The notes beneath the pieces were generated by a model that saw only the letters and a list, made by a program, of their open reading frames with translations, ran no database searches and was not told where the DNA came from. The position numbers and the translations under genes were made by a program. A stretch of DNA of 64,000 nt. It comes from a virus. The stretch spans positions 1 to 64,000 of IMG/VR virus record IMGVR_UViG_3300042346_000188, one strand, 5' to 3'. Positions 8-60,683 of the stretch are shown here, piece after piece; the first letter of the stretch is position 1, and the number at the start of each line of letters is the position of its first letter.

Positions 8-454
8 GTGTATGTTGTAACACCTCTTGAGAAGACAGTTAATGCAATCCTAGCAAAAACTACAACAATTTCAGCAGTAACACCCTCAATAACTAATATA
101 TTAGCTAATGTTTCAGTAACTTCAATAGTAGCTTCAGGCGAGATTCAAGACTTAGTCTTTGCACCTGTAGTACCAATAACTGTCATTGATGGTAATACGA
201 TAGTTACACCTACATTAGCATACTCTCCTGTTTTAGAAAATATATCAAGCAGTATTAGTATGACGCCTTACACGGCAAGTGCAGCTACTGTTTTACAATA
301 TGAACTAACAGGTGTCGAGAAAGCTCCTACTATTTTGTACTCATCGCTAGATGCAGAGTATGTTATGGATGGGTATCTCGATGATGGTTATGTTTATAAA
401 GGCCAATTATACATATTAGATGGGTATCTGCTAGAAGGATACATCGAATTATAG
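8..454 (+). CDS. Hypothetical virion-associated protein (start uncertain, near window edge)
   Basis: ORF rich in T/V/S with C-terminal Y-x-x-D-G-Y repeats; heads a run of closely spaced + strand genes. Confidence 0.5.
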   Translation: MYVVTPLEKTVNAILAKTTTISAVTPSITNILANVSVTSIVASGEIQDLVFAPVVPITVIDGNTIVTPTLAYSPVLENISSSISMTPYTASAATVLQYELTGVEKAPTILYSSLDAEYVMDGYLDDGYVYKGQLYILDGYLLEGYIEL

Positions 455-463
455 GAGTAACAA

Positions 464-721
464 ATGGTTCAGCTAGTTACAAGAATTAGTAAAGGATCTC
501 CGTTAACCTACTTAGAGATGGATAACAATCTTGTCTCGCTAAAGACTGGAATTGACACACTAAGCACAACTGTAGAATCTTACATTACAGATAATGATGT
601 TGTTGTGTCCTTTAAAGCAGATAGAAGTGAATTGGCAACTGTTGCCTTCTCAGGAGATTACAGAGATCTTTTAAACAAACCACAGCTAGTAAACGCTAGT
701 TGGAAAATTTTTGAGGAATAA
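464..721 (+). CDS. Small fibre-associated structural protein
   Basis: AGGAG RBS; KGSPLTYLEMDNNL and LATVAFSGDYRDLLNKP motifs typical of phage fibre proteins. Confidence 0.55.
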   Translation: MVQLVTRISKGSPLTYLEMDNNLVSLKTGIDTLSTTVESYITDNDVVVSFKADRSELATVAFSGDYRDLLNKPQLVNASWKIFEE

Positions 722-723
722 TA

Positions 724-1692
724 ATGGCAAATGTAAATGATGTAACAGTAAATTATAACTTCCCAATCCCTAATTTAAATAATACAATTACGTATGATAT
801 TGGTAGATTGAGAACAGCGTTAAGTAGTATGGATGCTTTGTTTAGCACACATGCTGCAGCAATTAATACAAAAGAAGCTACTGCTAATAAAGGCGTAGCA
901 AACGGCTATGCACCATTAGGCGCAGATACTTTAATCCCTTCACAATATCTTCCTAGTTATGTAGATGATGTTGTAGAAGCAGCTGCTCTTGCTAACTTCC
1001 CTGTAACAGGTGAAACTGGTAAGATCTACGTTGCAACAGGCACTGGTAAGACTTATAGATGGTCTGGTAGTGTATATGTTGAAATCAATACATCTGTTGG
1101 TAGTGCAGACACATCTGTTAAGTTAACAACACCAAGAACTATTAGTACTACAGGTGATGGTGTTTGGTCTGTAACATTTGATGGTACTGCAAACGTAACA
1201 GCAGCATTGGCACTTAAAAATAGTGGTGTTACTGCAGGTACTTATGATACTAGTCCAACAGCTATTACTCCAATTACTGTTGATGCACAAGGCCGTATTA
1301 CAGGTACAGGCACAGCTGTAACAATTACACCTGCTTTTGCAAGTCTTACTGGTGTCCCTACAACTGTTGCTGGTTATGGCATTACCAATGCATATACCAA
1401 AACAGAAGTAGATACGGCAATTACTAATGGTACTCCAAGCTTTACCACATTAACAGGTAAACCTACAACTCTTAGTGGTTATGGTATTACAGATGCAGCG
1501 ACTAGTGCGGCTTTAACCGCACATGCTGATGATGCTGCATTGCATTTAACTGCAGGCCAAAATACATTTATTGACGCAATCACTGCTTCATCGGCTGAGG
1601 TTAATTATCTTGTTGGTGTTACCTCTGCTATTCAAACACAACTTAATGCTAAATTAACAAAATCAGGCGCTACTTGGGCTGACTTTACATAG
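724..1692 (+). CDS. Tail-fibre-like protein
   Basis: KGVANGYAPLG, PSQYLPSYVDDV, ITVDAQGRIT and PTTLSGYGITDA motifs typical of phage fibres. Confidence 0.65.
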   Translation: MANVNDVTVNYNFPIPNLNNTITYDIGRLRTALSSMDALFSTHAAAINTKEATANKGVANGYAPLGADTLIPSQYLPSYVDDVVEAAALANFPVTGETGKIYVATGTGKTYRWSGSVYVEINTSVGSADTSVKLTTPRTISTTGDGVWSVTFDGTANVTAALALKNSGVTAGTYDTSPTAITPITVDAQGRITGTGTAVTITPAFASLTGVPTTVAGYGITNAYTKTEVDTAITNGTPSFTTLTGKPTTLSGYGITDAATSAALTAHADDAALHLTAGQNTFIDAITASSAEVNYLVGVTSAIQTQLNAKLTKSGATWADFT

Positions 1693-4017: not shown

Positions 4018-4033
4018 TTTATGAGGATAACAC

Positions 4034-5011: not shown

Positions 5012-5019
5012 GACGTAAT

Positions 5020-5973
5020 ATGCCTAGTTTAATTACATTTGGCGGTGGTTCGGTAAAATCGTTTGGTGGTACTAGACATAAGCAAGTGTCAGGAAGTGCG
5101 CCTGGCACATATTATCCCCCTGTAATGGCTGGTGAGTTAGGCGTTACTATTCAAGGCGCATCTAGTGTATATATGCCACCACAAGGTTCTGCTCGCAAAG
5201 CCTATGCTGTGTTTACTGGTGCTGGTAATTTTCATATAACTTCTGGTTTTGGTACGGTAAATGCAATCATCTGCGCAGGTGGTGGCGGTGGTAGTAACGC
5301 TGCGTACAAAGGACAAGGTGGTGGTGGGGCTGGTGGGTTATTACAAACTACAATTACCAGTACTGTTGGTTCTAATTATGTAATAACTGTTGGGTCAGGT
5401 GGCGCAAACAACACAAAAGGGTCAAACTCATCAGTTGGTTCATATGTTGCACACGGTGGTGGTGGAGGCGGAGGTGTTACCTGGAACTCAGATAAGAGCG
5501 GTGGTTCTGGTGGGGGTGGCGGGTATAATGGAGCTGTTGGTGGAACAGCTGTAGCTGGGCAGGGTAACGCTGGTGGTGCTGGTGTTCACTCTATTAAACA
5601 AACTGTTAGGTCTGGTGGTGGTGGAGGTGGTGCTGGTGCAGCTGGAAGTAATGGAGCTGTTCGAGGTTATGGCGGTGCTGGTGGTGTAGGGTTAGCTTGC
5701 TACCCAGACCAAGGAAGAAACCCATCAATTGTGTATAATCTTGCAGGTGGTGGTGGTGGAGGTTGGTCAGGTATTACTAGTGGTAACGGTAACATATTTG
5801 GTGGTGGTTCTGCGACTGGATATAGTAATCTACCAATTGGTTCTGCTGGAACAGTCAATACAGGTGGTGGTGGTGGTGGCTGTCATACATCTAGCAACGC
5901 TAATTCGAGTGGTGGTTCTGGTATTGTAATCATTGCTTGGACAGTTCAAACAACATCAGGGGGAATAGGCTAA
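5020..5973 (+). CDS. Glycine-rich virion protein
   Basis: Multiple GGGGG runs; GGSGIVII C-terminal motif. Confidence 0.6.
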   Translation: MPSLITFGGGSVKSFGGTRHKQVSGSAPGTYYPPVMAGELGVTIQGASSVYMPPQGSARKAYAVFTGAGNFHITSGFGTVNAIICAGGGGGSNAAYKGQGGGGAGGLLQTTITSTVGSNYVITVGSGGANNTKGSNSSVGSYVAHGGGGGGGVTWNSDKSGGSGGGGGYNGAVGGTAVAGQGNAGGAGVHSIKQTVRSGGGGGGAGAAGSNGAVRGYGGAGGVGLACYPDQGRNPSIVYNLAGGGGGGWSGITSGNGNIFGGGSATGYSNLPIGSAGTVNTGGGGGGCHTSSNANSSGGSGIVIIAWTVQTTSGGIG

Positions 5974-7071: not shown

Positions 7072-7527
7072 ATGGAACTTAGCGATAAAGGCGCAGAAGA
7101 CTTAAAAGGTTCTGAAGGGTTTAGATCGCAACCGTATCCAGATGGTGAGGGCGTCCCTACTATTGGCTTTGGCAGTACCTTCTATGAAGATGGTACCAAA
7201 GTTACCATGAAGGACGCTCCCATTACTAAGGAACGAGCGTTACAGCTTTTCAAAGTTACCCTTAAGCAATACGTAAGCGCAGTAGACAAGTCTGTTACTG
7301 TATCCTTAACCCAAAACGAATTCGATGCATTGGTCGAATTAACATATAATATTGGTGGCCCTGCTTTCAAAGGCTCTACACTATTACGTTTATTAAATGC
7401 AGGCGCACCGAAAGAACAAGTGGCTGCTCAATTCCTTAGATGGAATAAAGATAACGGTAAGGTAGTTGTCGGCTTGACCAATAGACGCAAACGTGAATCA
7501 AACAAATTTTTAGGACTTACAAAATGA
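7072..7527 (+). CDS. Endolysin, GH24 phage lysozyme
   Basis: EGFRSQPYPDGEGVPTIGFG catalytic E/D/T pattern; QNEFDALV, YNIG and GLTNRRKRE motifs. Confidence 0.93.
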   Translation: MELSDKGAEDLKGSEGFRSQPYPDGEGVPTIGFGSTFYEDGTKVTMKDAPITKERALQLFKVTLKQYVSAVDKSVTVSLTQNEFDALVELTYNIGGPAFKGSTLLRLLNAGAPKEQVAAQFLRWNKDNGKVVVGLTNRRKRESNKFLGLTK

Positions 7528-7722: not shown

Positions 7723-9318
7723 ATGACAGGCACCGTTAAAACAGTAGCAGATCCTTGTCAGACATACATTCATTTTATATCTTCGTGGGCTAAAAGTCGT
7801 GCTGTTTGTAATGGTGAACGCGCAGTCAAAGAATTAGATGGACATTTAGATTTGATTCGGATGTCTAATCTTTTAATACCCTTTTCTCCTTCAATGAGTA
7901 GTGCGCAATACGATTTCTATAAAGCAGAAGCAGAGCTGCCTGGCATTACTGCACAATTTGCAAAAATGTTAGTAGGTGGCATGTTGCGTAAACCACCTAT
8001 TGTAGAGTTACCAGAAAATGCACCTGAAGATGCTTTGGACTGGATTGTTAATAATATTGGTCGTGATGATTGTACATTAGTTGCCTTTTTAGATGATATC
8101 CTTTGGGAAGAAGTACAGACCTCACGTGCTTGGGTTTTCATTGATTACCCCCGTGTTTCTAACTCAGATCTTCTTGACAAAGAAACCAAAGAGCAAATAA
8201 AGCCTTACCCTATTTTACAGAAAGCTGAAACAATTATAAATTGGTCTACACGTACAAATATGCTTGGCAAAACAGTATTAAATAGGATTATTGTAAAAGG
8301 CTATATGGATGACTACACTACGAATGAATTCCATGCAATTCGTGTACCTGCAGTTTGGGTGCATGAGTTAGATGAGAGTGATGAATATAGAATACGTATC
8401 TACCAAGGTACAATTGCAGATAATGGTGATCAAACTTTAAAACCAGGTGATGCTGCAAACAAGAATGACAGATTGCTTCCAGCAGGAGGATTTCAACTTA
8501 TAGAAGTAATTGATAATATTTTGGCAAATGGCGAAAAATTAAATCACATACCTGCGTGGCCTTTAAATGGAAACATTACACCAATTACTCCATTGCTTTC
8601 TCCAATCGTTGACAAAGAAATTAGCTTATATAATAAAATTAGTAGAAGGAATCATCTATTGTATGGTGCTTCTACCTACACTCCTGTTATTGCTTCTGAT
8701 ATGCCTGATGAAGAGTTTGATGATATTGTACAATCAGGTTTAGGTTCTTGGATACGACTAAGGCAAGGCGATACAGCAACTGTACTGGAAACACCTACAG
8801 CCGCACTATCCGATATGCAAGCTGCAATTTTATCTACAATGGATGAAATGGCTAAGCTTGGCATTAGAATGCTGACAACAGAAAATGAGCAATCTGGTAT
8901 TGCATTAGAATTGCGTAATGCATCTCAGACAGCACAGCTTGCTGTTCTTAGTACCAAAATATCTAATACAATGAAACAAGCAATATGTTTAATGCTAAAC
9001 TGGCGGTATAATATAGACTGCAAAGCTTGTGATATAAAGTTTGAACTATCTGCAGACTTTGACCCAGTGCCATTAGGTGCTGAGTGGTTGAATTTAATTA
9101 CACAGTGGTACCAATCAGGCCTATTGCCTAGACCAGTGTGGTTACAAATGCTTAAAGCAAATGATATACTTAATGCTGAGTATGATGATGAAGAAGCTAT
9201 GGGACAAATTAATCAAGATGAGTTGATTATTCCAGCATCTACAAAGTACAATGATCAATACTCAATGCAAGTAGAAGCAGCTAAACAAGGACAGAAAGCT
9301 AAACCAATTAAAGAATAG
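7723..9318 (+). CDS. Portal protein (DUF4055-like)
   Basis: 531 aa at the start of the head module; AWVFIDYP, IINW, ADFDP motifs and acidic C-terminus. Confidence 0.8.
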   Translation: MTGTVKTVADPCQTYIHFISSWAKSRAVCNGERAVKELDGHLDLIRMSNLLIPFSPSMSSAQYDFYKAEAELPGITAQFAKMLVGGMLRKPPIVELPENAPEDALDWIVNNIGRDDCTLVAFLDDILWEEVQTSRAWVFIDYPRVSNSDLLDKETKEQIKPYPILQKAETIINWSTRTNMLGKTVLNRIIVKGYMDDYTTNEFHAIRVPAVWVHELDESDEYRIRIYQGTIADNGDQTLKPGDAANKNDRLLPAGGFQLIEVIDNILANGEKLNHIPAWPLNGNITPITPLLSPIVDKEISLYNKISRRNHLLYGASTYTPVIASDMPDEEFDDIVQSGLGSWIRLRQGDTATVLETPTAALSDMQAAILSTMDEMAKLGIRMLTTENEQSGIALELRNASQTAQLAVLSTKISNTMKQAICLMLNWRYNIDCKACDIKFELSADFDPVPLGAEWLNLITQWYQSGLLPRPVWLQMLKANDILNAEYDDEEAMGQINQDELIIPASTKYNDQYSMQVEAAKQGQKAKPIKE

Positions 9319-9329
9319 AGGTATTTACC

Positions 9330-12300
9330 GTGGCCATTAATGCTAATACACAAATTTATGATAAAACACTAGATCGAGCAGCAATGCTACGACTACATGA
9401 AAGAAGGGTAGTTGGTAAGGTTGATGTAATCATTGATGGTCATATCCTTCGTCTGGACAAATTAATAAAAGCTTTTGAAGGTATGAATCCTTTTAAAGTT
9501 GCATTAGATAAAGAGTTGCACAACACGTATTCACGAATCAACAACTCAGTAGAGAAGGATTTATTGTCTTTGACTACAGATCAACTTTCTTTTGCTTACC
9601 AAAAAGTAGAAGTAGCAATGGGACATATATGGCGTACTGAACGGCCTAAAGTTCGTGTTGCTGAAGAAATTGCGCTTGCTAATCCGCTCTATAAGAATCA
9701 AACAATGGAACAAGGTTGGCAGGGTATTTCTAAAAATGAGAAGGTTAGAATTGAAGCTGTAATTCGAAAAGGAATTGCAGATGGTAGTACTATTGATGAA
9801 ATAGCATTAGCAGTACGTACAGGAAATGTTCACAATATAACTAGAAACCAAGCAAAAGGCTTAGTCATTACTGCAGTTACTTCTGTAACAAATCAAGCTG
9901 ACCACGCAATTTATAAGGCTAATGCAAAGGCATTATTAGGCTGGGAATACGTTGCTGTACTTGATGCTCGTACTACACCTTTGTGTGCAGGCAGAGATGG
10001 ACATATCTATGAGATAGGAGATGTTGTACATTTGCCTCCAGCCCATTGGCATTGCCGTTCTACAACAACACCTGTATTTAAATCATGGGATGACATTTCT
10101 AAATTAGAAAGTGTTGCTCAAATACGTAAGCGAAACTTAGCAGGACTTACGGATAAACAAAAGGCTTTTTATGATGGTAATACTCCATTAAAAGAAAGCT
10201 ATAACGATTGGCTGCTAAGACAACCACAAGATGTTCAACTAAGACATTTAGGTGATTATAAAAAAGTAGGTATGTTTAATTCTCAACAACTTACTTTGGA
10301 CAAATTTACCAATGATGAAGGTAATACAATAGGTATCAAAGAATTACGTAAGATGACAGATTCTACTTATGTACTTCCAAATGATACCCAGAAGTTTGCC
10401 AATGCTAAGGCTAAATTAGATGCAATGCAATTGCCTATAATGACACCTGAAGATTTATTTGATAATAAAGAATTAGTAAAAACATTAAGAGATTATTATT
10501 TATTACAAGCTGGAGAATTAGATGGTACTTTATCACTCACAAACTATCGCGGTGCCCTCATACACACCAAGAAATCTACCAAGACACGAGTGCTCAACAA
10601 CCTTCCAACCGAAGACCAAACAATATTTAATCCAGTCACAGGCCGTTACGAAGATACCCGACTCTACCAGCCCAATGTACAAGTACTAAATAATAACCTT
10701 AGATTACTACGCGAAAGTCCAACATTAAAACAAGCAGATAAAGACTTTATCGAAAATTTTGTTGGTAGCCTTGATGAAAAGATGGGTGCAAATGAGAGAG
10801 CTGTAGTGGCAGATAATCTTCGTATTATCTTTACTAGGTTTAGAAACAATGGTGAGCAATGGAATAACTTTAAAGCTGTTGTTCAAGGCCAAATTAAGTT
10901 TGATGTAATGAACGTATCTGATTCATTGGAAACACAACTACGTGCTGATATTGATGTACTTAAAAAGCTTAAGCAAGACAATTACATTGACCCTATATTA
11001 GGGCCTACTCAGTTGCAAGATTTGCATGATAACTTTATCAGCAATATACGCGCTAAGAATAATTGGGAAGATTCTACTGCCCCTAAAATAGCTAGAGAAT
11101 TGCGCAATACCTTTGACTACAAAATACCGCTTAAGCTTAAGTTGTTGCCTAATGGTAAGCCACGTATTAGCGAAGAAGCATTAACACAATTTTATTTGAA
11201 ATTTGCCCATAGGCTGAGTCTTGCTGATATGCCTGACAGAGATCAGTTTGCTGTAGCACTTGGTAGAGATTTATACAATCTTGCCAACCTAAATGGTAAT
11301 AGACGTGAATGGTACAGCACAGGAATGGCGCTATTAGAAGCAAAGAATGTAAAGAAATTCTTCGAAGTAGAAACGTTTGGTGTACAAAAGCGAAGAATGA
11401 AAAGTAGATTGAGTAACAGTTTGTTTGGACCTTATTATGACACTCTGTCATATAACATACGTGTGACTGATCCTCGTGTACAAGAATATGCGCAGCTCAC
11501 AAGGAAAGTGGATGTCGGCCTACGTGTTGGCGTTACAACGGATAAGAACAAGTTAATATTCCGCGAGGGTTATAAGACTTATTTTATTGACAGAGGTCTC
11601 CTAGGCCTAGAGGACACACGGATACCTATTACATCTACAAATAGTTTTGGTGATTTTCCTGAGAAGTTTGTTGATAAGAATTTGGCAGATGCTTTAAACT
11701 GGGCATCTAAGTCTAAATACAAAATTGACGAAGACTTCTACGATTTCACTCAGAAATTATTGTACTTCGAAGATGATAGAGGTAACGCTAAAAAGTACAA
11801 CGAATTGAATGAATACAAACATTATATATCTTCAAGAGGAGATGCTTATGAGAGATTCAAATCAATGGAGTGGTTACGCACTAGAGGATATTCTTTTAGT
11901 AATCATGCTTTTGTTGACCATCGCGCTCGTATATATGATCGCGGACTCATTAGTCCTCAGTCAGGAGAATCCTTCAGACCATTTCTTAACACAGAACAAT
12001 CAAAAGTGTTGGGTGAGGCCGGATACAGAAACTTCAGAGACCAAATAGGTGCATTCATGGGCGGTCTTAATGATACTTTTGAAGGACGATATAATTCGTT
12101 ATCTTTCACTGGTAGACAAAAGATTGCTGATAAGCTATGGCCTGATATGGTTGACATTGGTAATAAAATGTTACGTGCCAAACCTGCTGATATTCGTGCT
12201 ATACTAGAGTCAGAAATGGTACAACTAGTAGATGGTGAAGAGCTGGGTAAGTTCTTTAGATTCGCTATGGAGTCAGCTAAGATAGATAATCATCTTAAAG

Positions 12301-13955
12301 CTGGCGGAGCCATGGAAGACTATAAGACAGCCTTAGCTTTAGAACAAGATGCTTCATCTTCTGGTGCTCAGATCATTGCATTGACAACCAAGAACAAACA
12401 GCTAGCAGAATTATCTAATGTTGTACCTACAAATCAAAAACGTAGGCTATATGATGAGATTGCTGCTGCCACTTATAATGATCCGCGTTTTAAAGTATTA
12501 AACGAGAAGTTAGGGTTAAATGAAAAAGATTTACGAAAAGCTGCGAAAGCTCAGAACATGGTTACGTTTTATGGTGCTGGTGAACGAACTGGCATCCTTA
12601 ATGTGGAAGGTAAACTATCAAAGGTCTTGGACAAGCAAGGTAACACGTTGGTCGTTAAAGCGTCTGATCGTGATAAGGTACTTAATGAGATTTCTGCAAG
12701 AGCAGCAAGATACGAACGTTTCGATCCTGAAACAGCTGAACAGCTCAAACAGCTCAGAGCAAATGTACGCGATATCTTTAATAAAGGCCAAGATCCTGGG
12801 GACGATATTATGGAAGCGCTCTACTTCCTCGATCCAGAGACTAGGCAGTTAGTTGAAAAGATGTCTCATCAGTACGATAGAGTTGTAACACCATCAGACT
12901 TTGCTGCTATTGCAAGACTAATGTCTGAACAGCTAAGTGAACAAGTGCCTATTCTAAAAGACTTTACTAAGTTCTTTGGAAGACTTGCTGAAGATTTCTT
13001 AGTTAATTCTAAACCTTCGCAAGCAGCACTTGACTGGAAATCTATTGGTATTACCACTGCCTTAAGACCTTATCAGAAAGGTTATGTACTTCCTGATCGT
13101 ATCAGTGAAATACTGGGTTTAAAGGCAGGAGAAGCAGTAACTGAAAAGTTCTTAAAAAGGTTTAATGGCTGGAAACCAGACGGTTCTTTAGCTGATATTA
13201 TCTATGGTGTAAAAGGCCCCGATGACAGACGTACTGGCTTTAAAGTACTTAAAATTGAACCTGTAGATAAGATTGAAATATCTAAGGGTATCGAAATCTT
13301 TTATGCTAACAAGCTTCCTAAGTCTTGGACAAATGTACCTTGGGTTAATTTTGATGGTAAAATCATTGAACAGAACTTTACCCAAACATTTGAAGAAAGA
13401 CTAGCTTATAAAGATAAGGAAGGTAATTGGGTAAACAATATCTTGCAAATACCTCAAAAGACAGAGGCTACATGGTGGGAACAAGTTGTAAATGCTGATG
13501 GCAAGATTAATGATATAGCTGATGCAGGAAAAGCACGTACTGCTTTTGCCGTTAATGGCAACCATTCAAATGACGCCACATTGGTTAAGAACTTTCACCT
13601 ATGGGGTAAAGAAAATGGTATTGCCACTAGTACTATTCATGACGCATTCTTTGCTAATGCAGCAGATATGTTAAATGCTCGTGATGGTATTCGTAAATTA
13701 TACGCAAAAACATTGGATGCTAATCCCGTTGTAGCTACACTAAATGAGATGAAAGCTCGTGGATTACCTAAAGAGCTTTACGATCAATACCTTCAAGAAG
13801 CCATAGACAAGGGATTAATACCTGTAGAGGGTGTTTCTATTGTTGGTGGTAAACGCTTGAAGAAATCTGATATCCTTACTAAAGAGGATATTTTATCAAC
13901 AATACCCGATCCTACTAAATTTGAAAATGATTGGGGTTTTTATGGAATTGGATAA
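9330..13955 (+). CDS. MuF/SPP1 gp7-like minor head protein fused to a T7-family single-subunit RNA polymerase (putative virion RNAP)
   Basis: N-terminal YVAVLDARTTPLC...PPAHWHCRS (MuF); C-terminal DHRARIY, DASSSGAQ (motif A), RKAAKAQNMVTFYG (motif B), NGNHSNDA and IHDAF (motif C). Confidence 0.9.
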   Translation: MAINANTQIYDKTLDRAAMLRLHERRVVGKVDVIIDGHILRLDKLIKAFEGMNPFKVALDKELHNTYSRINNSVEKDLLSLTTDQLSFAYQKVEVAMGHIWRTERPKVRVAEEIALANPLYKNQTMEQGWQGISKNEKVRIEAVIRKGIADGSTIDEIALAVRTGNVHNITRNQAKGLVITAVTSVTNQADHAIYKANAKALLGWEYVAVLDARTTPLCAGRDGHIYEIGDVVHLPPAHWHCRSTTTPVFKSWDDISKLESVAQIRKRNLAGLTDKQKAFYDGNTPLKESYNDWLLRQPQDVQLRHLGDYKKVGMFNSQQLTLDKFTNDEGNTIGIKELRKMTDSTYVLPNDTQKFANAKAKLDAMQLPIMTPEDLFDNKELVKTLRDYYLLQAGELDGTLSLTNYRGALIHTKKSTKTRVLNNLPTEDQTIFNPVTGRYEDTRLYQPNVQVLNNNLRLLRESPTLKQADKDFIENFVGSLDEKMGANERAVVADNLRIIFTRFRNNGEQWNNFKAVVQGQIKFDVMNVSDSLETQLRADIDVLKKLKQDNYIDPILGPTQLQDLHDNFISNIRAKNNWEDSTAPKIARELRNTFDYKIPLKLKLLPNGKPRISEEALTQFYLKFAHRLSLADMPDRDQFAVALGRDLYNLANLNGNRREWYSTGMALLEAKNVKKFFEVETFGVQKRRMKSRLSNSLFGPYYDTLSYNIRVTDPRVQEYAQLTRKVDVGLRVGVTTDKNKLIFREGYKTYFIDRGLLGLEDTRIPITSTNSFGDFPEKFVDKNLADALNWASKSKYKIDEDFYDFTQKLLYFEDDRGNAKKYNELNEYKHYISSRGDAYERFKSMEWLRTRGYSFSNHAFVDHRARIYDRGLISPQSGESFRPFLNTEQSKVLGEAGYRNFRDQIGAFMGGLNDTFEGRYNSLSFTGRQKIADKLWPDMVDIGNKMLRAKPADIRAILESEMVQLVDGEELGKFFRFAMESAKIDNHLKAGGAMEDYKTALALEQDASSSGAQIIALTTKNKQLAELSNVVPTNQKRRLYDEIAAATYNDPRFKVLNEKLGLNEKDLRKAAKAQNMVTFYGAGERTGILNVEGKLSKVLDKQGNTLVVKASDRDKVLNEISARAARYERFDPETAEQLKQLRANVRDIFNKGQDPGDDIMEALYFLDPETRQLVEKMSHQYDRVVTPSDFAAIARLMSEQLSEQVPILKDFTKFFGRLAEDFLVNSKPSQAALDWKSIGITTALRPYQKGYVLPDRISEILGLKAGEAVTEKFLKRFNGWKPDGSLADIIYGVKGPDDRRTGFKVLKIEPVDKIEISKGIEIFYANKLPKSWTNVPWVNFDGKIIEQNFTQTFEERLAYKDKEGNWVNNILQIPQKTEATWWEQVVNADGKINDIADAGKARTAFAVNGNHSNDATLVKNFHLWGKENGIATSTIHDAFFANAADMLNARDGIRKLYAKTLDANPVVATLNEMKARGLPKELYDQYLQEAIDKGLIPVEGVSIVGGKRLKKSDILTKEDILSTIPDPTKFENDWGFYGIG

Positions 13956-14160: not shown

Positions 14161-14178
14161 GTACACAAACGGAGGCAG

Positions 14179-14197
14179 ACCCCGTTAAATTAACCCT
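14179..14197 (+). promoter_or_regulatory. Class A repeat ACCCCGTTAAATTAACCCT, copy 1 (putative phage RNAP promoter)
   Basis: Exact 19-mer, four intergenic copies; this one lies inside the inverted repeat GGAGGCAG/CTGCCTCC. Confidence 0.75.
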
Positions 14198-14289
14198 TCC
14201 CTGCCTCCCCCTATATTCATTATATATAGTTATTATCTCTTATTATAATATCTATTATACTAAGTAATATACTATATAATCATTATAGA

Positions 14290-14308
14290 ACCCCGTTAAA
14301 TTAACCCT
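14290..14308 (+). promoter_or_regulatory. Class A repeat, copy 2, upstream of scaffold/capsid operon
   Basis: Exact 19-mer 80 nt before the scaffold start. Confidence 0.75.
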
Positions 14309-14387: not shown

Positions 14388-15035
14388 ATGTCTACCGAAA
14401 CTGATGAAACAAAAACACAAGAAACTAATACTCCTGCTCCGGATAATACTCCTGCCACTCCTCCTGTGGATGACGTGGACAGCAAGATCCAAGAAGCTCT
14501 TAAGCCAATCAAGACAAAACTTGACAGTGCGTACAAAGAGCGTGATGAAGCCTTAAGAAAAGCTGCAGAGTATGAACAGAAAGAAAAAGAAGCTAATATA
14601 GCACGTCTACAAGAAGAAGGGAAACACAAAGAAGCCTTTGAACTTCAGTTGGCAGAAACCCAAGCTAAATTGGAAGCTGTAACAAAGCGTAACGTAGAGC
14701 TTGCTCGTGATGCAGAAATCAAAACTGTACTAGCAAACTATGCGCTTAGAAGTGACAAAGCTCGCGATATGGCCTATATGGATATTGCCAGTCAACTTAT
14801 TCAAAATGAGAATGGTGTCTGGGTTCACAAGAGTGGTGCCGATCTTAGAACGTTTGTAAAACAATTCTCTGAACATGACGATAATTCTTTCTTGTTTAAA
14901 GCCAAACCATCATCAGGCGGCGGTACTACACCATCTGGAACAAATAATCTTCCTGATAACTCGCCTAAATCAATCTTTGCGATGTCTCAGGAAGAGGTAC
15001 TCAAACTCGCGGCTGAAGGAAAGCTTCGCCGTTAA
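14388..15035 (+). CDS. Capsid scaffolding protein
   Basis: Acidic/Pro N-terminus, coiled-coil core, FLFK...GGG tail; immediately before the capsid gene. Confidence 0.8.
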   Translation: MSTETDETKTQETNTPAPDNTPATPPVDDVDSKIQEALKPIKTKLDSAYKERDEALRKAAEYEQKEKEANIARLQEEGKHKEAFELQLAETQAKLEAVTKRNVELARDAEIKTVLANYALRSDKARDMAYMDIASQLIQNENGVWVHKSGADLRTFVKQFSEHDDNSFLFKAKPSSGGGTTPSGTNNLPDNSPKSIFAMSQEEVLKLAAEGKLRR

Positions 15036-15050
15036 TATTAAGGAAATAAA

Positions 15051-16301
15051 ATGGCAGCAAATAGCGTTACCTATACCAGTGGAACATCTGGTAATAATAA
15101 CAACTATGTATTACAAGAAGCAATTGGCGCATACAGCGATGAAGCTTATACTAATGCTCGTAAGTTATCTGGTACTGGAATCACCTCTAGCAACCCACAA
15201 ATTGACACTAACACAGAAACCTTTATTGGTCAAATGCGTTGGTTGAAACCTTTAAATCCTAAAATCAACATTGCATCATTAACAGATGCTGCTGATGGTG
15301 AGAAAACTAACTATACATCTGATTTTAGTACTTACATTAAAACTGTACGTACACACGGTGCTGAAAAAGTCAATATGACTGAAGTAGTTACTCGTCAAGA
15401 CGGTTTGGCTAAAATTGGTCGTGACTTTGGTGAAACTCGTGCTAAAGACGAACATGATGCTATTCTTTCTGTACTTAAAGGTGTAGCTATCTCTGAAGCA
15501 TTAGTTGGCACAGCTGGCGCTGGTGGTCAATCATGGTCAAACGATCCTGCTGACGCAACTTATGGCTTTTATGTAGATATCGGTTCAGCTACTGCTGGTG
15601 CAGGCAAAATCGTTTCTGGAAACGGTAAAGATAGAGACAACGTTCTTAACTATGCGTACCAAGGTGCTTCAAGAGCAGAAGGCTTGTTAGATGCATTTGG
15701 CAAAGCTTTCAAAGACTATGAACCAGATTGGGCATACTTAGCTGTATCTCCAGAAGTTTTAGCTTCTTTCCGTTCAGCTAATTTTGTTGATGAAACAACT
15801 GTAACCGAAGGTAATATTAACTTCCAAACAATTTTCAACGGTAAATTCCGCTTGATTGTAACACGGGCTAACCAATCTTTAAGTGCATCTGACCTTGCTG
15901 TACTTAACGCAGGTGCTGGTGTTGATATTGTTGGTACTAAAACTTCATTCATTATTTTGCCAGGTGCTATTGCAATGGAAACATTAGCAGTGCCTGATTC
16001 AACTGAAGTATACCGTGACGCTAACAAATACAAAGGTGGTGGTGTTACTTCTGTCTGGTCACGTTGGGGTTATGTACTAGCTCCTGCTGGTTATGATTGG
16101 AATGGTATTTCAACTGCATTCCCTTCAGATGCTGATTACGCTTCATACCGCAGTACTTCTGGCGGTAATACAACTTCAGTAGTTGCTGCTGCAGGAACAC
16201 AAGCTGCTCTTATCTCTAACCGTGCAAACGTTAAAGGTACTTGGACACGTAAAACACAATCAGCCTTATCACTAGGCATTTTACCAGTATTCCATTCTTA
16301 A
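15051..16301 (+). CDS. Major capsid protein
   Basis: 416 aa after scaffold, strong AAGGA RBS, biased codon usage. Confidence 0.8.
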   Translation: MAANSVTYTSGTSGNNNNYVLQEAIGAYSDEAYTNARKLSGTGITSSNPQIDTNTETFIGQMRWLKPLNPKINIASLTDAADGEKTNYTSDFSTYIKTVRTHGAEKVNMTEVVTRQDGLAKIGRDFGETRAKDEHDAILSVLKGVAISEALVGTAGAGGQSWSNDPADATYGFYVDIGSATAGAGKIVSGNGKDRDNVLNYAYQGASRAEGLLDAFGKAFKDYEPDWAYLAVSPEVLASFRSANFVDETTVTEGNINFQTIFNGKFRLIVTRANQSLSASDLAVLNAGAGVDIVGTKTSFIILPGAIAMETLAVPDSTEVYRDANKYKGGGVTSVWSRWGYVLAPAGYDWNGISTAFPSDADYASYRSTSGGNTTSVVAAAGTQAALISNRANVKGTWTRKTQSALSLGILPVFHS

Positions 16302-17547: not shown

Positions 17548-18120
17548 ATGGCACACATTTCTAGCTTAACCGCTGCAATGTTCTCTGATTTATCAGTAAA
17601 CCCAACCGCAAGTTCAGACGCAGCATGGAACGCATTAGCTACAGAAGCAGACTATAATGGTAAATTTGCAGGTACTGGCGCTAATACATTAGTATCTATT
17701 TCGCATTTGAAAGAGTTTCCTGCGTTAGGTACTCCCGCAAATATCACTAAAGTTCCTGAATACGGTTCTAAAACTTCTAAACAAGTGCAAGGCCAAGCTG
17801 ATCTTCCAAACATGGAAATTACGCTTAACTATATCCCAAGCTTGTGGGCTGGTAACGAATTACGTAACGAAGCTGCTTCTAATGCAGCAACAGGTGTTAA
17901 GGTTGGCGATGGCAAACTTTACATTTTCCGTTTTGCATTATTAGGTACAGATCCTGTTGCAGGCTTAACTTCTGCCAACTTGGCTACTATTGAAAACTCT
18001 TGCTTTTACTTCTTAGGTAAAATGGAAGCATTGGAAGTAACTTCAAGTTTAACTGAAGCTATGACTGCTAAGCTAACAATTTCAGTACAATCTGAAATTA
18101 AAGGCGCATACACTAACTAA
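17548..18120 (+). CDS. Tail tube (major tail) protein, paralog 1
   Basis: EFPALGTPANITKVPEYG...QVQGQAD...EITLNYIP motif; synteny. Confidence 0.8.
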   Translation: MAHISSLTAAMFSDLSVNPTASSDAAWNALATEADYNGKFAGTGANTLVSISHLKEFPALGTPANITKVPEYGSKTSKQVQGQADLPNMEITLNYIPSLWAGNELRNEAASNAATGVKVGDGKLYIFRFALLGTDPVAGLTSANLATIENSCFYFLGKMEALEVTSSLTEAMTAKLTISVQSEIKGAYTN

Positions 18121-18129
18121 GGAGGCCTT

Positions 18130-18822
18130 ATGGCAACGGCAAAAGGTCACATTTCTAGCTTAACCGCAGTAATGTTCTCTGATTTATCAATCACTAACTA
18201 TCCAGTTACTAGTTCAGATTGGGATTCAGCATTCAGTACACCATCTACTGTTGAAGCAAAGCTTGGGCAACTATTTGATAATAAGTCAAAACTAGTTTTG
18301 ATTGATGATAGTATTGCGGGTGGTGTATCTTTCGCAGATTTGATTGATACTACTAACACTGTAGTGCCAGGGGCAGCTGCTGGCAATGCAGAGTTTATTC
18401 GTATTACTCACTTAAAAGAATTCCCTGCTCTAGGCACACCTGCTAATATCACTAAGGTTCCTGAATACGGCTCTAAAACTTCTAAGCAGGTACAAGGACA
18501 AGCCGATCTTCCGAACATGGAAGTCACCTTGAACTATATTCCTAGTTTGTGGGCAGATGCAATTGTACATGATGAAGATGGTGTAGCTCGTCAGCCTAAA
18601 GTTGGTGATGGCAAGACATATGTATTCCGTTTTACTTTGTTAGGTACAGAGCCTAGCGGTTACACAACTTCTGAGTTAGCTGCAAGTGCTGAGCATTCTT
18701 GCTTTTATTTCTTAGGTAAGATTGAAGCTCTAGAAGTAACTTCAAGCTTAACAGAGGCAATGACTGCTAAGCTCACTATCTCAGTACAATCAGAAATTAA
18801 AGGTGCTTATACAGCAGCTTAG
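18130..18822 (+). CDS. Tail tube protein, paralog 2
   Basis: Shares long identical blocks with 17548..18120 plus an N-proximal insertion. Confidence 0.8.
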   Translation: MATAKGHISSLTAVMFSDLSITNYPVTSSDWDSAFSTPSTVEAKLGQLFDNKSKLVLIDDSIAGGVSFADLIDTTNTVVPGAAAGNAEFIRITHLKEFPALGTPANITKVPEYGSKTSKQVQGQADLPNMEVTLNYIPSLWADAIVHDEDGVARQPKVGDGKTYVFRFTLLGTEPSGYTTSELAASAEHSCFYFLGKIEALEVTSSLTEAMTAKLTISVQSEIKGAYTAA

Positions 18823-52696: not shown

Positions 52697-52724
52697 GCCT
52701 CGACACAATTGTCGGGGCTTTTTT
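52697..52724 (+). terminator. Rho-independent terminator ending the late region
   Basis: GCCTCGACA-CAAT-TGTCGGGGC then TTTTTT. Confidence 0.85.
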
Positions 52725-52930
52725 ACGAGAGTCATGGGGGCAATTTTGCGGGGCAAGACGGGGCATTTCTGCACGAATTTTGGTGGGCGGCAAATCTGGG
52801 CCTGTGTGGCGCGGGGCGGTGGGGGCATCACTGGTGGATCAGGGTGGCAGTTGCGTGCCGTGTAGGGCAGTTTCTGGTGCCAGAACGGGTACACGTGGGG
52901 CAGTTGCGTGCAGTTCTTCAGGTACACTCA
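52725..52930. repeat. GC-rich, G-skewed non-coding tract with GGGCA/GGCAGTT repeats
   Basis: Repeated GGGGCA and two copies of GGCAGTTGCGTGC in an otherwise AT-rich genome. Confidence 0.65.
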
Positions 52931-52949
52931 ACCCCGTTAAATTAACCCT
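52931..52949 (+). promoter_or_regulatory. Class A repeat, copy 3
   Basis: Exact ACCCCGTTAAATTAACCCT. Confidence 0.75.
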
Positions 52950-52984: not shown

Positions 52985-53017
52985 CGGAAATAATAGTATC
53001 TTATATGAAGTACAATA
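52985..53017 (+). promoter_or_regulatory. Class B repeat CGGRAA-N5-GTATCTTATATGAAGTACAATA, copy 1 (putative early promoter)
   Basis: Exact 22-mer at 52996..53017; CGG starts 11 nt upstream in all three copies. Confidence 0.75.
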
Positions 53018-53040
53018 ATAACCTTATATAGGATAACATT

Positions 53041-53871: not shown

Positions 53872-53873
53872 CG

Positions 53874-53906
53874 CGGGAAATACGGTATCTTATATGAAGT
53901 ACAATA
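53874..53906 (+). promoter_or_regulatory. Class B repeat, copy 2
   Basis: Exact 22-mer at 53885..53906. Confidence 0.75.
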
Positions 53907-53923
53907 CTAACTTGGAGATTAAA

Positions 53924-54133
53924 ATGAAATACGAAGTGTTTATATTTGAACGTAATGCCGACAGTTATCATGATAGAGCAAATTTATTAAAAGCTTATAG
54001 AAGTTTTGAAGAATATGAGGATAAGATGGTGTTTGTTGTTGATACCGAAACAGGTGCCTTTGAGGTTATCTGTAATAAAGAGCAACTAAGTCTAGCAGCT
54101 GCAAAATTATTGTATATGGGGGAATTAAGATGA
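53924..54133 (+). CDS. Early hypothetical protein (start revised)
   Basis: GGAG RBS before ATG 53924; the ORF-track start runs through the promoter repeat. Confidence 0.6.
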   Translation: MKYEVFIFERNADSYHDRANLLKAYRSFEEYEDKMVFVVDTETGAFEVICNKEQLSLAAAKLLYMGELR

Positions 54134-54584: not shown

Positions 54585-54587
54585 ACG

Positions 54588-54620
54588 CGGAAAACGGGGT
54601 ATCTTATATGAAGTACAATA
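54588..54620 (+). promoter_or_regulatory. Class B repeat, copy 3
   Basis: Exact 22-mer at 54599..54620. Confidence 0.75.
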
Positions 54621-56552: not shown

Positions 56553-58781
56553 TTGGTACTTATGCGAAATAAATTATTACGTTCTTTAAAGTCTAGAATT
56601 GTATCTGAGATTGCTCCTCAATCTCCATTACGATTCTTAAAGAAGTTGAATATCGAAGATCATCTTGATGAGATAATTGCCAACGCTTATTTGTATACTA
56701 GGCCTAAGAAAGGCTCTGATAAGCAGATTATAATGTCAGAGGTAATTAGTATTCTTGGCCATAACATGCGAAAAGGTGAAAAGAAAGACTCTGCTACTGC
56801 AGCAAGATGCGGAGCATTCATTCTGTATTCTTTTGACAGCTTAGGTCTAACAGAAATTGTAATGACTAATGCAGCCAATGGGCACGGTACATATATTGTT
56901 AATGTAATTGATGAAAAGAGTATGCAAGAGTTGTGGGAAACTGTTGGTAGGCAAGGAGGTAAGGGAAAACTGCCCTCACTAGTACCATATGAAGATTGGA
57001 AAGGGTTTAAACATTCTACAGGCTTGTCTTTAGTTAAGACACAGTCTAGAGAGGTTGCAGCTACACTAACACCAGCTACTCATCCTATTGTATTTGAAGC
57101 AGTAAATAAGAGTCAAAGAGTTGGCTGGATTATAAACCAAGAAGTATACGCAATTGCTAAGTGGGCGTTGAGTAATAAAACAGAAGCATTCTCAGATATT
57201 TGGGAACAAAACAATCCACAGGCAAGAACAACAAAGCTGCGAGAAACCAAAGCAATTTTAAGTATTGCAGATAAGTTTACTGATACAACTTTCTATCATC
57301 TGTACTACCTTGATTTTAGAGGTCGTAAGTACCCTACAACAGCATATCTGCATGAACAATCTTCAGATATAGCTAAAGGCTTACTGCTTAGAAAAGACAA
57401 GAAAGTTATTGGACAAGAGGGTTTCTTTTGGCTATGTGTATCTATTGCATCTAATTGGGCAGGCAGCTCAGGCAGAGAAGATGGTGCAAAGACTGACAAA
57501 ATACCACTTAGAGATAGATACCATTGGGTTCTAGACAATGAAGAGATTTTAACAGCTTATGCAATGTCGCCTAAGTTGCATCAAGGTTGGATGGATGCTG
57601 ATAAGCCTTGGCAATTCCTTGCAGCTTGTGTAGAGCTTAAGAATGCATTAAGTATGGGTTCAATGTACTTACAGTATGAATCACATATAGAATGCTTTAT
57701 TGACGGTTCTACTAATGGCTCTCAACATTTAAGTGCGTTAACTAGAGATGAAGTTACTGCCCCTTATGTTAATTTAGTACCGCTAGATATGCCTGGTGAT
57801 TTATATGCATACGTAGCTGCTCATGTGTGGATGAAGATTGATTCAGTTCTTAGCAGAATGCCACCTGCATTAATACTAGAATGTGAAGAATTCATTGATG
57901 GATTAATATCGCTGAAGAAGAAAATTGTAGCTGCAGAGCCTAAATCTGATTTGAGAGCAGAATTAGTAATGCAAATTAGACAGTACAAAAAAGATTGGGA
58001 ATCTGTTGGCAATAAAGCTGCACCTGTATTCTGGGGTAGAATTAAAGACTCTAAGCAAAGACGTAAAATTGTAAAGAGAAATGTAATGACACTACCTTAT
58101 GGGGGCTCTAGCTATGGTCTATCTGAACAACAAATAGATGATTCAAAGAAACATGGCATAGAGTTGTTAATGAATATGGAGCATAAATGGGCAGCTTGGA
58201 TGGGCAGATTGGTATATGAAGATGCTAAAGACTCGCTAGAAAGACCTATGATGTTGTTGTCTGTATTTGAAAAAGCTGGTGCAGCTGCAGAGAAAAGAGG
58301 TCAATTCTTAGAGTGGGTTGTGCCTGTAACAAACTTTCCTGTAGTACAAAACTATACAGAGGGTAAGACTAAGAGAATACATATTCAGTGGGGGCCTCGA
58401 ATTGGTATTAGAAGCGATACCACAGGATACTTTGGGAATGATCTGCAATTGCATGTATGTTTCATTGAGGATCAAGTTCCCTCAAAAGGAAAGCAGTCTC
58501 AAGGAGCAGCACCTAATGTAATCCATTCTTTGGATGCAGCACATCTAGCAATGACAACAGTTAGATGTGATTTTCCTATCACTACAATACATGATTCATA
58601 TGGATGCCTATTAGCAGACATGCCTAAGCTTTATCGTATTGTGCGTGAGACATTTGTTGAGTTGTACCGAGATAATCCTTTGTACCCTATCATAGATAAG
58701 ATTGATGGTGATCTTACTTATGTAGATATGGGTGATTTGGATGTTAATTTAATTCTAGAAAGTGAATATGCTTTCGCATAG
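56553..58781 (+). CDS. T7-family single-subunit DNA-directed RNA polymerase (stand-alone; start may be ATG 56562)
   Basis: DFRGRKY, PWQFLA, DGSTNGSQH (A), RKIVKRNVMTLPYG (B), PNVIHSLDA and IHDSY (C). Confidence 0.96.
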   Translation: MVLMRNKLLRSLKSRIVSEIAPQSPLRFLKKLNIEDHLDEIIANAYLYTRPKKGSDKQIIMSEVISILGHNMRKGEKKDSATAARCGAFILYSFDSLGLTEIVMTNAANGHGTYIVNVIDEKSMQELWETVGRQGGKGKLPSLVPYEDWKGFKHSTGLSLVKTQSREVAATLTPATHPIVFEAVNKSQRVGWIINQEVYAIAKWALSNKTEAFSDIWEQNNPQARTTKLRETKAILSIADKFTDTTFYHLYYLDFRGRKYPTTAYLHEQSSDIAKGLLLRKDKKVIGQEGFFWLCVSIASNWAGSSGREDGAKTDKIPLRDRYHWVLDNEEILTAYAMSPKLHQGWMDADKPWQFLAACVELKNALSMGSMYLQYESHIECFIDGSTNGSQHLSALTRDEVTAPYVNLVPLDMPGDLYAYVAAHVWMKIDSVLSRMPPALILECEEFIDGLISLKKKIVAAEPKSDLRAELVMQIRQYKKDWESVGNKAAPVFWGRIKDSKQRRKIVKRNVMTLPYGGSSYGLSEQQIDDSKKHGIELLMNMEHKWAAWMGRLVYEDAKDSLERPMMLLSVFEKAGAAAEKRGQFLEWVVPVTNFPVVQNYTEGKTKRIHIQWGPRIGIRSDTTGYFGNDLQLHVCFIEDQVPSKGKQSQGAAPNVIHSLDAAHLAMTTVRCDFPITTIHDSYGCLLADMPKLYRIVRETFVELYRDNPLYPIIDKIDGDLTYVDMGDLDVNLILESEYAFA

Positions 58782-60306: not shown

Positions 60307-60664
60307 TGATCTGCTGATTGCATTACAATCAAACCCAGATTATCATGAAATTCTTGAAGACATGCTTCCTGTATTAAGGGGCTTAATTCCAACTAGTACA
60401 TTAATGAATGACTTAGGTGGTGATGTTTATATTCTCGAAACATTGGAAGATTTCAAAGAGATTGAAGTATTTGATTTGGATGACCCTGGTAAGAGTCTAC
60501 TTGATAAAGCAGGCATATTTGACATTGTATCGTTTTGCGATGTAGATTGGATAAAAATACTATCATTAACATCAGATAGCGGTGGTCCGGTTTATTACAT
60601 TCCACGAGAGCTTGCTCGACTTAACCCAAACGTGGGAGCATCTCTTGAGCTTTCGAATTCATAG
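60284..60664 (+). CDS. Hypothetical protein
   Basis: GGAGG RBS. Confidence 0.6.
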   Translation: MKIFSKLNDLLIALQSNPDYHEILEDMLPVLRGLIPTSTLMNDLGGDVYILETLEDFKEIEVFDLDDPGKSLLDKAGIFDIVSFCDVDWIKILSLTSDSGGPVYYIPRELARLNPNVGASLELSNS

Positions 60665-60683
60665 ACCCCGTTAAATTAACCCT
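60665..60683 (+). promoter_or_regulatory. Class A repeat, copy 4, upstream of replication genes
   Basis: Exact 19-mer immediately after the 60664 stop, 30 nt before the SSB start. Confidence 0.78.

Follow-up and report, generated by a model that had tools for sequence, protein, structure and literature searches.

Why would a phage join an RNA polymerase (RNAP) to a minor head protein? The question is raised by a gene at 9330..13955 (+) of the window, the 64,000-nucleotide (nt) stretch of DNA analysed here, which forms the first 64 kb of the 81,115-bp IMG/VR virus record IMGVR_UViG_3300042346_000188, rated complete by CheckV. Open reading frame (ORF) analysis, together with Pfam and PHROG matches, identified this gene as a fusion of a MuF-type head-morphogenesis domain with a T7-type RNAP. 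By analogy with phages that package an RNAP, we argue that this phage probably brings an RNAP of its own along in the capsid.

A head protein gene continues in one frame into an RNA polymerase

The fusion gene is a single uninterrupted frame of 1541 amino acids (aa) (9330-13955, stop included), which starts with GTG and has a GAGGT ribosome-binding site 7 nt 5' of the start. Like all genes of the window it lies on the + strand. It begins 12 nt from the stop codon of the portal gene (531 aa; 7723..9318, +; phrog_145, 9.8e-55), which is directly 5' of it, and directly 3' of it are the scaffold and major head protein genes (14388..16301, +), identified by homology matches at 14388-15035 and 15051-16301, respectively. 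A sequence-only reading of this DNA, made without database searches, had described a MuF-RNAP fusion in one frame between portal and scaffold. The frame and the flanking genes bear this out, and the motifs quoted in that reading (LDARTTPLC, PPAHWHCRS, DHRARIY, DASSSGAQ, RKAAKAQNMVTFYG at nt 12534, NHSNDA and HDAF) are all found where it had located them. The fusion occupies the MuF slot of the canonical order portal-MuF-scaffold-major capsid protein (MCP), and is the sole MuF match in the complete 81-kb genome. The same setting recurs in related loci, with the portal 5' of the fusion in 56/56 and the scaffold and MCP 3' of it in 49/49. No prohead protease gene was found between the portal and major head protein genes.

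The MuF/SPP1 gp7-like head-morphogenesis domain spans residues ~1-330 (9330..10319, +), as delimited by Pfam, phrog_241, conservation and fold matches in BFVD. Phage_Mu_F (PF04233) matched its core at residues 141-246 with 1.4e-13 and 52 bits (curated cut-off 29.6), and phrog_241, a head morphogenesis family, matched residues 59-368 with 5.6e-56. The conserved residues are T215, C219, P236, P237, H239, C242 and R243. Among 25 representatives of 17-67% identity, the signature T215, C219, P236, H239, C242 and R243 is kept at 90% or more. Two AlphaFold2 models, each built on an alignment of 32 family members, covered residues 1-600 and 440-1541. The first reached a predicted local distance difference test (pLDDT) score of 84.6. 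Foldseek comparison of its MuF part with BFVD gave 81 matches at E ≤ 0.001, and those with names are head morphogenesis or minor capsid proteins, including the orthologue in roseophage DSS3_VP1 (4.4e-33) and, from phage Xp12, a MuF-ADP-ribosyltransferase fusion (4e-14). Foldseek against the PDB returned nothing for this part at E ≤ 0.001, and no solved MuF structure was found for comparison. The family hidden Markov model, the gene position after the portal and the MuF-like fold all place the N-terminus in PF04233, as had been anticipated from the letters of the sequence.

Behind the MuF domain, a flexible linker at residues ~329-354 (10314..10391, +) is marked by pLDDT values below 50-60. It leads into a helical connector domain of ~200 aa at residues ~355-559 (10392..11006, +), which was delimited from the model and from its conservation within the clade (e.g. 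L466 and N488). The connector matched no Pfam family and lies outside every RNAP superposition.

The polymerase module has the T7 fold and the T7 catalytic residues

The rest of the protein, residues ~560-1541 (11007..13952, +), was identified by VIA-align, Foldseek and the family profile as a complete T7-type single-subunit RNAP with N-terminal domain, thumb, palm, fingers and C-terminus. RNA_pol (PF00940) matched residues 1379-1483 with 6.8e-12 and 45.4 bits (curated cut-off 22), and two PHROG RNA polymerase matches (1.6e-23 and 8.6e-09) cover residues 860-1121. The family profile found T7 RNAP in a PDB profile search at 2.5e-31. The model of residues 440-1541 (pLDDT 82.5; predicted template modelling score 0.79) aligned with T7 RNAP at Z 29.4 and a root-mean-square deviation of 5.5 over 584 residues, with model positions 123..1102 lying on T7 36..883. 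Other enzymes gave Z values of 26-28 (mitochondrial RNAPs), 16.6-19.8 (N4 mini-vRNAP) and 14 (full-length N4 gp50), and Foldseek E values of the model were about 1e-17 to 1e-18. A complete T7-type RNAP with a PF00940 match was what the sequence-only reading had expected. In the model the fold is indeed complete, with N-terminal domain and C-terminus, at an identity to T7 RNAP of 12-18% in the structural alignments.

Residue equivalences were obtained by aligning T7 RNAP to the family model with hmmalign, and the motif positions agree with conservation in the family. The T/DxxGR motif is DHRARIY (residues 863-869; 11916..11936, +), in which D863, R865, R867 and Y869 correspond to T7 D421, R423, R425 and Y427. 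Motif A is DASSSGAQ (12348..12371, +), with D1007 at the place of T7 D537. Motif B, RKAAKAQNMVTFYG (12534..12575, +), was located by conservation and spacing: R1069-x3-K1073-x3-M1077-x3-Y1081-G1082 is spaced identically to T7 R627/K631/M635/Y639/G640. Y639 of T7 is the tyrosine that selects ribonucleotides, and because the spacing matches, its counterpart is present as Y1081. NGNHSNDA (residues 1409-1416; 13554..13577, +) supplies H1412 and D1415, equivalent to T7 H784 and D787, and motif C, IHDAF (13635..13649, +), supplies H1437 (nt 13638) and D1438, equivalent to H811 and D812. Across the 25 representatives D1007 and R867 are invariant, and K1070, K1073, Y1081, G1082, D1415 and D1438 are conserved at 90% or more. 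Between motifs B and C lies a clade-specific insertion of ~100 residues (~1230-1331; 13017..13322, +), modelled at low confidence (pLDDT 30-55). Judged by these alignments, the full T7 catalytic set is retained, comprising the aspartates of motifs A and C, the R/K/Y/G of motif B, T/DxxGR and the H784 equivalent, and the fused RNAP is apparently active as an enzyme.

The fusion defines a widespread and isolated clade

An exhaustive phmmer search of 1.84 billion representative proteins with the RNAP module returned only 171 matches at E ≤ 0.001, which sets the module apart as a sharply isolated clade. The matches of the long representatives all begin at residue ~630-920, and Phage_Mu_F is present in 24 of the 25 divergent long representatives. 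A word-indexed protein search found 395 proteins; the full-length ones are nearly all ~1540 aa with both Pfam domains, and the named ones are labelled only 'SPP1 gp7 family putative phage head morphogenesis protein'.

Searches of IMG/VR and of prokaryotic genomes for such loci were based on an alignment of the close-relative family. In IMG/VR at least 577 contigs encode a relative of the fusion. Eighty independent contigs were fetched for a check of the frame, and 78 of them have one open frame across both domains, the exceptions being L019 and L049. The same single frame is present in three contigs of metagenome-assembled genomes (MAGs) and in the isolate genomes DSS3_VP1/PM1. A stop or mis-assembly between the domains, which the sequence-only reading had named as a possible refutation, was thus not seen. 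Among 50,697 deposited phage genomes, the full architecture occurs only in EBPR siphovirus 1 (57% identity) and in the roseophages DSS3_VP1/PM1 (Naomviridae, 30%), where the proteins are labelled 'head protein', 'minor head protein-like' or 'head morphogenesis'. Together with the IMG/VR contigs, these are the recurrences of the architecture that had been sought in phage databases. Among 185,579 prokaryotic species genomes only three loci were found, all MAG-binned and none in isolates; one is a 74-kb phage-sized contig and two are short contigs. The phages with MuF-RNAP are lytic and not prophages. A prophage or toxin context of the fusion was rejected on this count and on the nature of the cargo, an RNAP.

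The interrupted genes, those of L019, L049 and EBPR siphovirus 1, are broken exactly within motif B, between AQNMV and TFYG, or between NGN and HSNDA. At both break points of L019 and L049 Rfam detected group I introns (73.8 and 56.3 bits; gathering score 50), located at 10219-10425 in L019 and 9224-9459 in L049, each followed by an HNH endonuclease ORF. The interruption in EBPR siphovirus 1 (9190-9971) is at the motif B site, the same site as in L049, and scores below the Rfam gathering score. Splicing of the L019 and L049 introns would restore the fusion, and truly split MuF and RNAP genes were rejected as an explanation. Because homing introns insert exactly there, the DNA of motif B and of NGNHSNDA is taken to be strongly constrained.

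Some homologues are longer than the fusion of the window. Inteins were considered and rejected, the extra 100-150 aa being accessory insertions near residue 990 or C-terminal extensions. An insertion hot spot of 100-150 aa lies after residue ~990, ~15 residues before motif A, in P0009, P0022, P0067, P0071, P0082, P0087, P0099, P0113 and P0119; P0152, P0159 and P0166 have C-terminal extensions of 260-340 aa instead. None of the accessory insertions or extensions that were tested matched a Pfam family. In P0034 (1024 aa), which matches the RNAP part with 82% identity along half of the query, residues 506-570 weakly match a GNAT acetyltransferase; this region could be a further accessory insertion or a chimeric gene call. 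From its distribution and sequence conservation, the fusion is ancient, ancestral and obligate for this RNAP clade.

A second, free polymerase accompanies the fusion

The early block ends with the gene for another RNAP (56553..58781, +; PF00940 1.8e-66; phrog_414 1.4e-122), a free, canonical T7-like enzyme of 742 aa whose C-terminus, ...EYAFA, resembles that of T7 RNAP. Its orthologue in DSS3_VP1 is gp080, 33% identical. The fused and free RNAPs of the window share 22-25% identity, confined to the surroundings of motifs A and C. A profile of the fused module scored 106.8 bits with the second RNAP (RNAP2) of DSS3_VP1, 106.2 with T7 RNAP, 71.5 with RNAP2 of the window, and 38.9 and 25.8 with N4 RNAPII gp16 and gp15; it gave no match with N4 gp50. 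Likewise, no N4 virion RNAP chain appeared in the PDB profile search with the family profile at E ≤ 0.1, and phrog_2166, 'N4-like RNA polymerase', which also matches the free RNAP2, reached 0.0072 against the fusion. A recent duplication of the phage's own free RNAP was rejected as the source of the fused enzyme, given the 22-25% identity and free RNAPs that score no better than T7. Orthology with the N4 virion RNAP was rejected as well, gp50 being undetected by the profile and the fold being nearer to T7 than to N4. The profile scores, the absence of a match with N4 gp50 and the low identity to the free RNAP together mark the fused RNAP as an old, separate branch of the T7-type superfamily.

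Two classes of promoter-like repeats flank the early and late genes

A strong intrinsic terminator at 52697..52718 (+) closes the late module. Beyond it, a repeat search found a promoter-like 22-mer, class B, in three copies (52996..53017, 53885..53906 and 54599..54620, all +), which occur only in the first 1.7 kb of the early block, the block that ends with the free RNAP gene. Class B includes a −10-like element, TACAAT, and beyond the window it was found only in the closest relative, in two copies at the same position.

Class A, the 20-mer AACCCCGTTAAATTAACCCT, has seven copies genome-wide, before middle and late genes. Four of them lie after the fusion gene (14178..14197, +), 5' of the scaffold gene (14289..14308, +), at the late/early junction (52930..52949, +) and 5' of the genes for a single-stranded DNA-binding protein (SSB)-like protein, a kinase and DNA polymerase (60664..60683, +). 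The other three are found at genome positions 74110, 77634 and 77728, of which the latter two precede TerL. Of four complete relatives, three conserve the class A core, with 4-7 copies; two of these three encode a fusion protein of 59-66% identity.

DSS3_VP1 (NC_055826) has a T7-style, promoter-like repeat family of its own, ATAGG(G/T)T(G/A)CGTTAAAGAGGGG, with at least 11 copies, which has CGTTAAA in common with class A. The CGTTAAAGAGGGG-core sites, at 2333, 6580, 7408, 19202, 19237, 19329, 29396, 45926, 46393, 46551, 55101 and 59196, are all in the late module or 3' of the free RNAP gene, and none is in the early block. A private 33-nt repeat in two copies (35790 and 36237) stands directly after the late terminator and before the first two early ORFs. 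Its core resembles class B at 11 of 15 positions in a post hoc comparison, and it contains a perfect TATAAT. No published description of these repeat families of DSS3_VP1 was found.

In the early block of the window, 19 sigma-70-like sites were found with 14.3 +/- 4.2 expected, which is no enrichment, although this is weak evidence. Two further observations concern this region. The ~190 bp at 52740-52930, which separate the late terminator from the first sites of classes A and B, are strongly G-rich and non-coding; they could have a regulatory role or act as an origin or packaging site. Type III hammerhead ribozymes had been proposed at 54927-55522, and an Rfam scan of the whole window at gathering thresholds gave no family match.

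Tail genes and other features of the phage

Downstream of the head genes lie genes for an adaptor, a tail terminator, two tail-tube paralogues, a tape measure of 4352 aa (20077-33135, +), Dit and fibre-like giants, and no tail sheath gene was found among the tail genes of the window. The phage was assigned to the siphoviruses because tail terminator, tail tube, tape measure and Dit are present without a sheath, in agreement with the sequence-only reading. At ~0.15 nm per residue the tape measure predicts a tail of ~650 nm, comparable to that of Thermus phage P23-45. The rest of the genome holds TerL and a T7-like replication set of primase-helicase, DNA polymerase, gp2.5-like SSB and ligase.

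Several features stand apart from the fusion. The genes of the two major tail protein paralogues of 190 and 230 aa, which stand in tandem (17548-18822), have DNA segments in common that are 82-84% identical (repeat families D6 and D7). The tape measure embeds a lytic transglycosylase-like segment at residues ~3015-3161. After Dit comes an ORF of 3118 aa (34600-43956) with a weak DUF7359 match, no match to any PHROG family, and internal repeats of ~400 nt at 38812, 39211 and 39607. Its product presumably forms a giant tail tip or fibre. Upstream of the portal, an endolysin gene (7072-7527, +) is preceded at 2674-5973 by three consecutive genes for glycine-rich proteins (fn3 and ALK/LTK glycine-rich domains; GGT-rich repeats), which are probably fibre or decoration proteins. 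As to the host, a single UniRef entry labelled 'Flavobacterium sp.' and the binning of MAG contigs under Gammaproteobacteria and Beijerinckiaceae were the only clues, and they were judged unreliable.

A packaged polymerase may start a two-polymerase cascade

How, then, might the fusion protein function? We put at about 55% the probability that it is a capsid-packaged RNAP which, ejected with the DNA, starts a two-polymerase cascade similar to that of N4 but independent in origin. The protein would be made late, and its MuF domain would draw the entire chain to the portal and into the procapsid, in the way that gp6 recruits SPP1 gp7, so that a few copies are packaged. It would leave the capsid with, or just behind, the end of the DNA via the long tail. 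Once in the new cell, the fused RNAP would start with the first of the early genes, for which the three class B sites (52996-54620) are its most likely promoters, and the early transcripts would include that of the free RNAP gene. The free RNAP would in turn recognise the seven class A sites, which precede genes for replication, packaging and the head. The presence of a second, very divergent free RNAP and of two repeat classes fits what is expected for an N4-style relay. We infer the relay by analogy with N4 and P23-45 (PMC10770324), and packaging and ejection from SPP1 gp7 and the MuF-cargo concept (PMC5512222). Both elements have precedents: MuF domains carrying enzymatic cargo (Iyer et al. 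2017, PMC5512222), and an RNAP fused to a virion structural protein in the siphovirus P23-45 (PMC10770324). Assignment of class A to the free RNAP is favoured by comparison, since the core is conserved in relatives and the corresponding DSS3_VP1 family lies outside the early block. The sequence-only reading had regarded MuF as a packaging and ejection tag that allows host-independent early transcription. This idea fits all facts that can be checked in the sequence and is partly supported; packaging, ejection and host independence would follow from the behaviour of MuF/SPP1 gp7 and of the N4 virion RNAP.

Several points weigh against this cascade. Class B is assigned to the fused RNAP by position only, with host RNAP as a live alternative reader, and this class is not conserved past the closest relative. 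The TATAAT in the early repeat of DSS3_VP1 means that host RNAP could read the early promoter class. A protein of ~175 kDa would have to traverse a tail of the predicted length. The fused RNAP is by sequence unrelated to the N4 virion RNAP, so that the analogy with N4 is functional only. For no family member was a published account found of its virion proteome, of polymerase activity in vitro or of its transcription map.

An RNAP that is packaged and ejected could also serve as a genome-entry motor, pulling the 81-kb genome by transcription, or as a maker of replication primers, while host RNAP expresses the early genes. In T7 infection, transcription by the phage RNAP draws in most of the genome, and the T7-like replication module, the very long tape measure and the −10-like elements of the early repeats (TACAAT in the window, TATAAT in DSS3_VP1) would suit such a role. 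DSS3_VP1, however, has the same fusion with an ordinary tape measure of 1655 aa, and the long tail is therefore not linked to the fusion. The free T7-like RNAP is already available to pull or prime, and the entering end would still need promoters for the fused enzyme, which makes the overlap with the cascade large. We regard the motor or primer role as improbable. It is also unlikely, though somewhat less so, that the RNAP is never delivered and that its work is done late, in the cell where it is made, either by the fusion or by an RNAP freed through cleavage or internal initiation, while the MuF part does its usual head job. The gene sits in the late module with class A sites flanking it, the linker at residues 329-354 could be cut, the location of the RNAP part inside the capsid is itself inferred, and such an enzyme might serve late gene expression or link transcription with the assembly of heads. 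Yet the phage already possesses a free RNAP, class A sites precede its late genes, and no prohead protease gene was found in the portal-to-MCP interval. Were the two parts to work apart, split genes would be expected commonly, but the gene is single-frame in 78 of 80 loci and intron-interrupted in the other two, and MuF is retained in all but one of the 25 divergent members.

That the RNAP module might be an inactive relic, a bulk or structural cargo of the minor head protein, is suggested by its low identity to T7 RNAP and by the large low-confidence insertion at residues 1230-1331. The catalytic residues are nevertheless invariant or at least 90% conserved among members as divergent as 17% identity, and homing introns target exactly the catalytic motifs; we consider a relic very improbable. 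For an assembly or gene-calling artefact that joins separate MuF and RNAP genes no favourable point was found, and its likelihood is negligible: the frame shared by the IMG/VR contigs, the MAG contigs and the two isolates refutes it. The cascade started by a packaged RNAP thus remains the reading that we prefer.

Novelty and implications

In the literature searched, with most subscription journals outside its coverage, no description of a MuF-RNAP fusion was found, in keeping with the sequence-only reading, which knew of no characterised example. The papers describing DSS3_VP1 make no mention of an RNA polymerase. Virion-delivered RNAPs and MuF-carried cargo are each known; the MuF-RNAP fusion, which would combine the two, is widespread and unannotated. 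A wider claim seems to us evenly poised between true and false. According to it, T7-type RNAPs delivered in the capsid on a MuF anchor would form a class of their own, ancient, widespread and so far unrecognised, which was invented independently of N4 gp50, crAss gp66, the virion RNAPs of jumbo phages and P23-45 gp96. With the free RNAP as its partner, the virion enzyme would render these siphoviruses host-independent in transcription from the first minute, with class B as the promoters of the virion enzyme and class A (CGTTAAA core) as those of the free enzyme.

Virion-packaged RNAPs are rare and informative about transcription, and whether they share an origin or have converged is a question in the literature. 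If the claim is true, it concerns the Naomviridae and hundreds of uncultured phages from freshwater, marine and sludge sources, the MuF cargo system would be able to carry a polymerase of 1000 residues, and polymerase relays would have evolved repeatedly. The viral contigs, at least 577, in which the protein is labelled 'head morphogenesis protein' would receive a corrected annotation, and the clade could yield compact orthogonal RNAP-promoter pairs for biotechnology. The cultured members DSS3_VP1/PM1, which grow on Ruegeria pomeroyi DSS-3, make the idea directly testable.

Comparison with known systems

The cultured roseophages DSS3_VP1 and DSS3_PM1 (Naomviridae) have the same fusion, with 27-31% identity over aligned segments at 89% coverage, in the same gene order. 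The fusion protein of DSS3_VP1/PM1 is YP_010105321, of about 165 kDa. Identity with DSS3_VP1 is 42% for the portal, 39% for the scaffold, 40% for the MCP, 40% for the adaptor, 37-40% for the tail tube and 33% for the free RNAP. The DNA of DSS3_VP1 contains deoxyuridine made by Dcd and Dtm, whereas the genome of the window is without those enzyme families. A link between the fusion and deoxyuridine DNA was rejected, as no match to the dCMP-deaminase family, YfbR-like HD proteins or ThyX was found in this genome.

T7 RNAP resembles the fused RNAP in its whole fold, from the N-terminal domain to the C-terminus, and in all catalytic residues. It differs in being a free early protein of 883 aa, made from host-transcribed mRNA, that is not a virion component and ends in FAFA. 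The fused RNAP ends in FYGIG, has an insertion of ~100 aa before the specificity-loop region, and stands behind MuF and a helical connector.

In P23-45, gp96 is an RNAP fused to the tape measure and gp64 is a non-virion RNAP; the virion RNAP transcribes pre-early genes, including the gene of the second RNAP, and the two enzymes use two promoter motifs (PMC10770324). Both phages are thus siphoviruses with an RNAP on a structural protein, and their tape measures have 5002 aa in P23-45 and 4352 aa in the window. The enzymes of P23-45 are of the two-barrel type and related to cellular RNAP, whereas both of those in the window have the T7-type right-hand fold. The carriers also differ, a tail tape measure in P23-45 and a capsid-internal MuF protein in the phage of the window, whose tape measure gave no RNAP match.

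The MuF-effector fusions (ADP-ribosyltransferase, RNase and RelA/SpoT) share with the fusion an N-terminal MuF domain after the portal and a C-terminal enzymatic domain, and their cargo has been proposed to ride into the capsid and be injected (PMC5512222). Known MuF cargoes are toxins or host-modifying enzymes of 100-300 aa, in contrast to the RNAP of ~1000 aa found here. The survey of MuF fusions by Iyer et al. (2017) lists no RNAP cargo and places virion RNAPs only in N4-like phages (PMC5512222). The MuF polymorphic toxins of temperate phages have a toxin domain at the C-terminus, mostly beside an immunity gene, and reside in prophages. The fusion falls outside this group, its cargo being an RNAP and not a toxin, with no isolate-genome locus in the prokaryotic set. 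It agrees in architecture and gene context with the polyvalent or packaged early effectors (PMC5512222), in which a virion-targeting domain (MuF, portal or MPTase) is joined to enzymes for the early phase of infection, as a virion-targeting MuF domain fused to an enzyme and encoded among late virion genes.

N4 offers a functional parallel. Its early region has three early promoters at its head. Like the fusion, N4 gp50 is a single-subunit RNAP of the T7 superfamily encoded among late virion genes, and N4, like the phage of the window, encodes a second phage RNAP in the early/middle region. In the window, the three class B sites would be the counterpart of the early N4 promoters, similarly few and similarly placed. 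On the other hand, gp50 has ~3500 aa with N- and C-terminal domains of its own and no MuF, while the fusion has 1541 aa and a MuF anchor. A metallopeptidase-like region of gp50 is needed for its encapsidation (PMC5512222), and N4 is a podovirus with the ejection proteins gp51 and gp52 (PMC13434306); Pfam detected no peptidase domain in the fusion, and the tail genes are of siphovirus type, unlike those of N4. The profile of the fused module misses gp50 and the predicted fold is nearer to T7 RNAP (Z 29.4) than to N4 mini-vRNAP (Z 16.6-19.8), which indicates an origin independent of N4 gp50.

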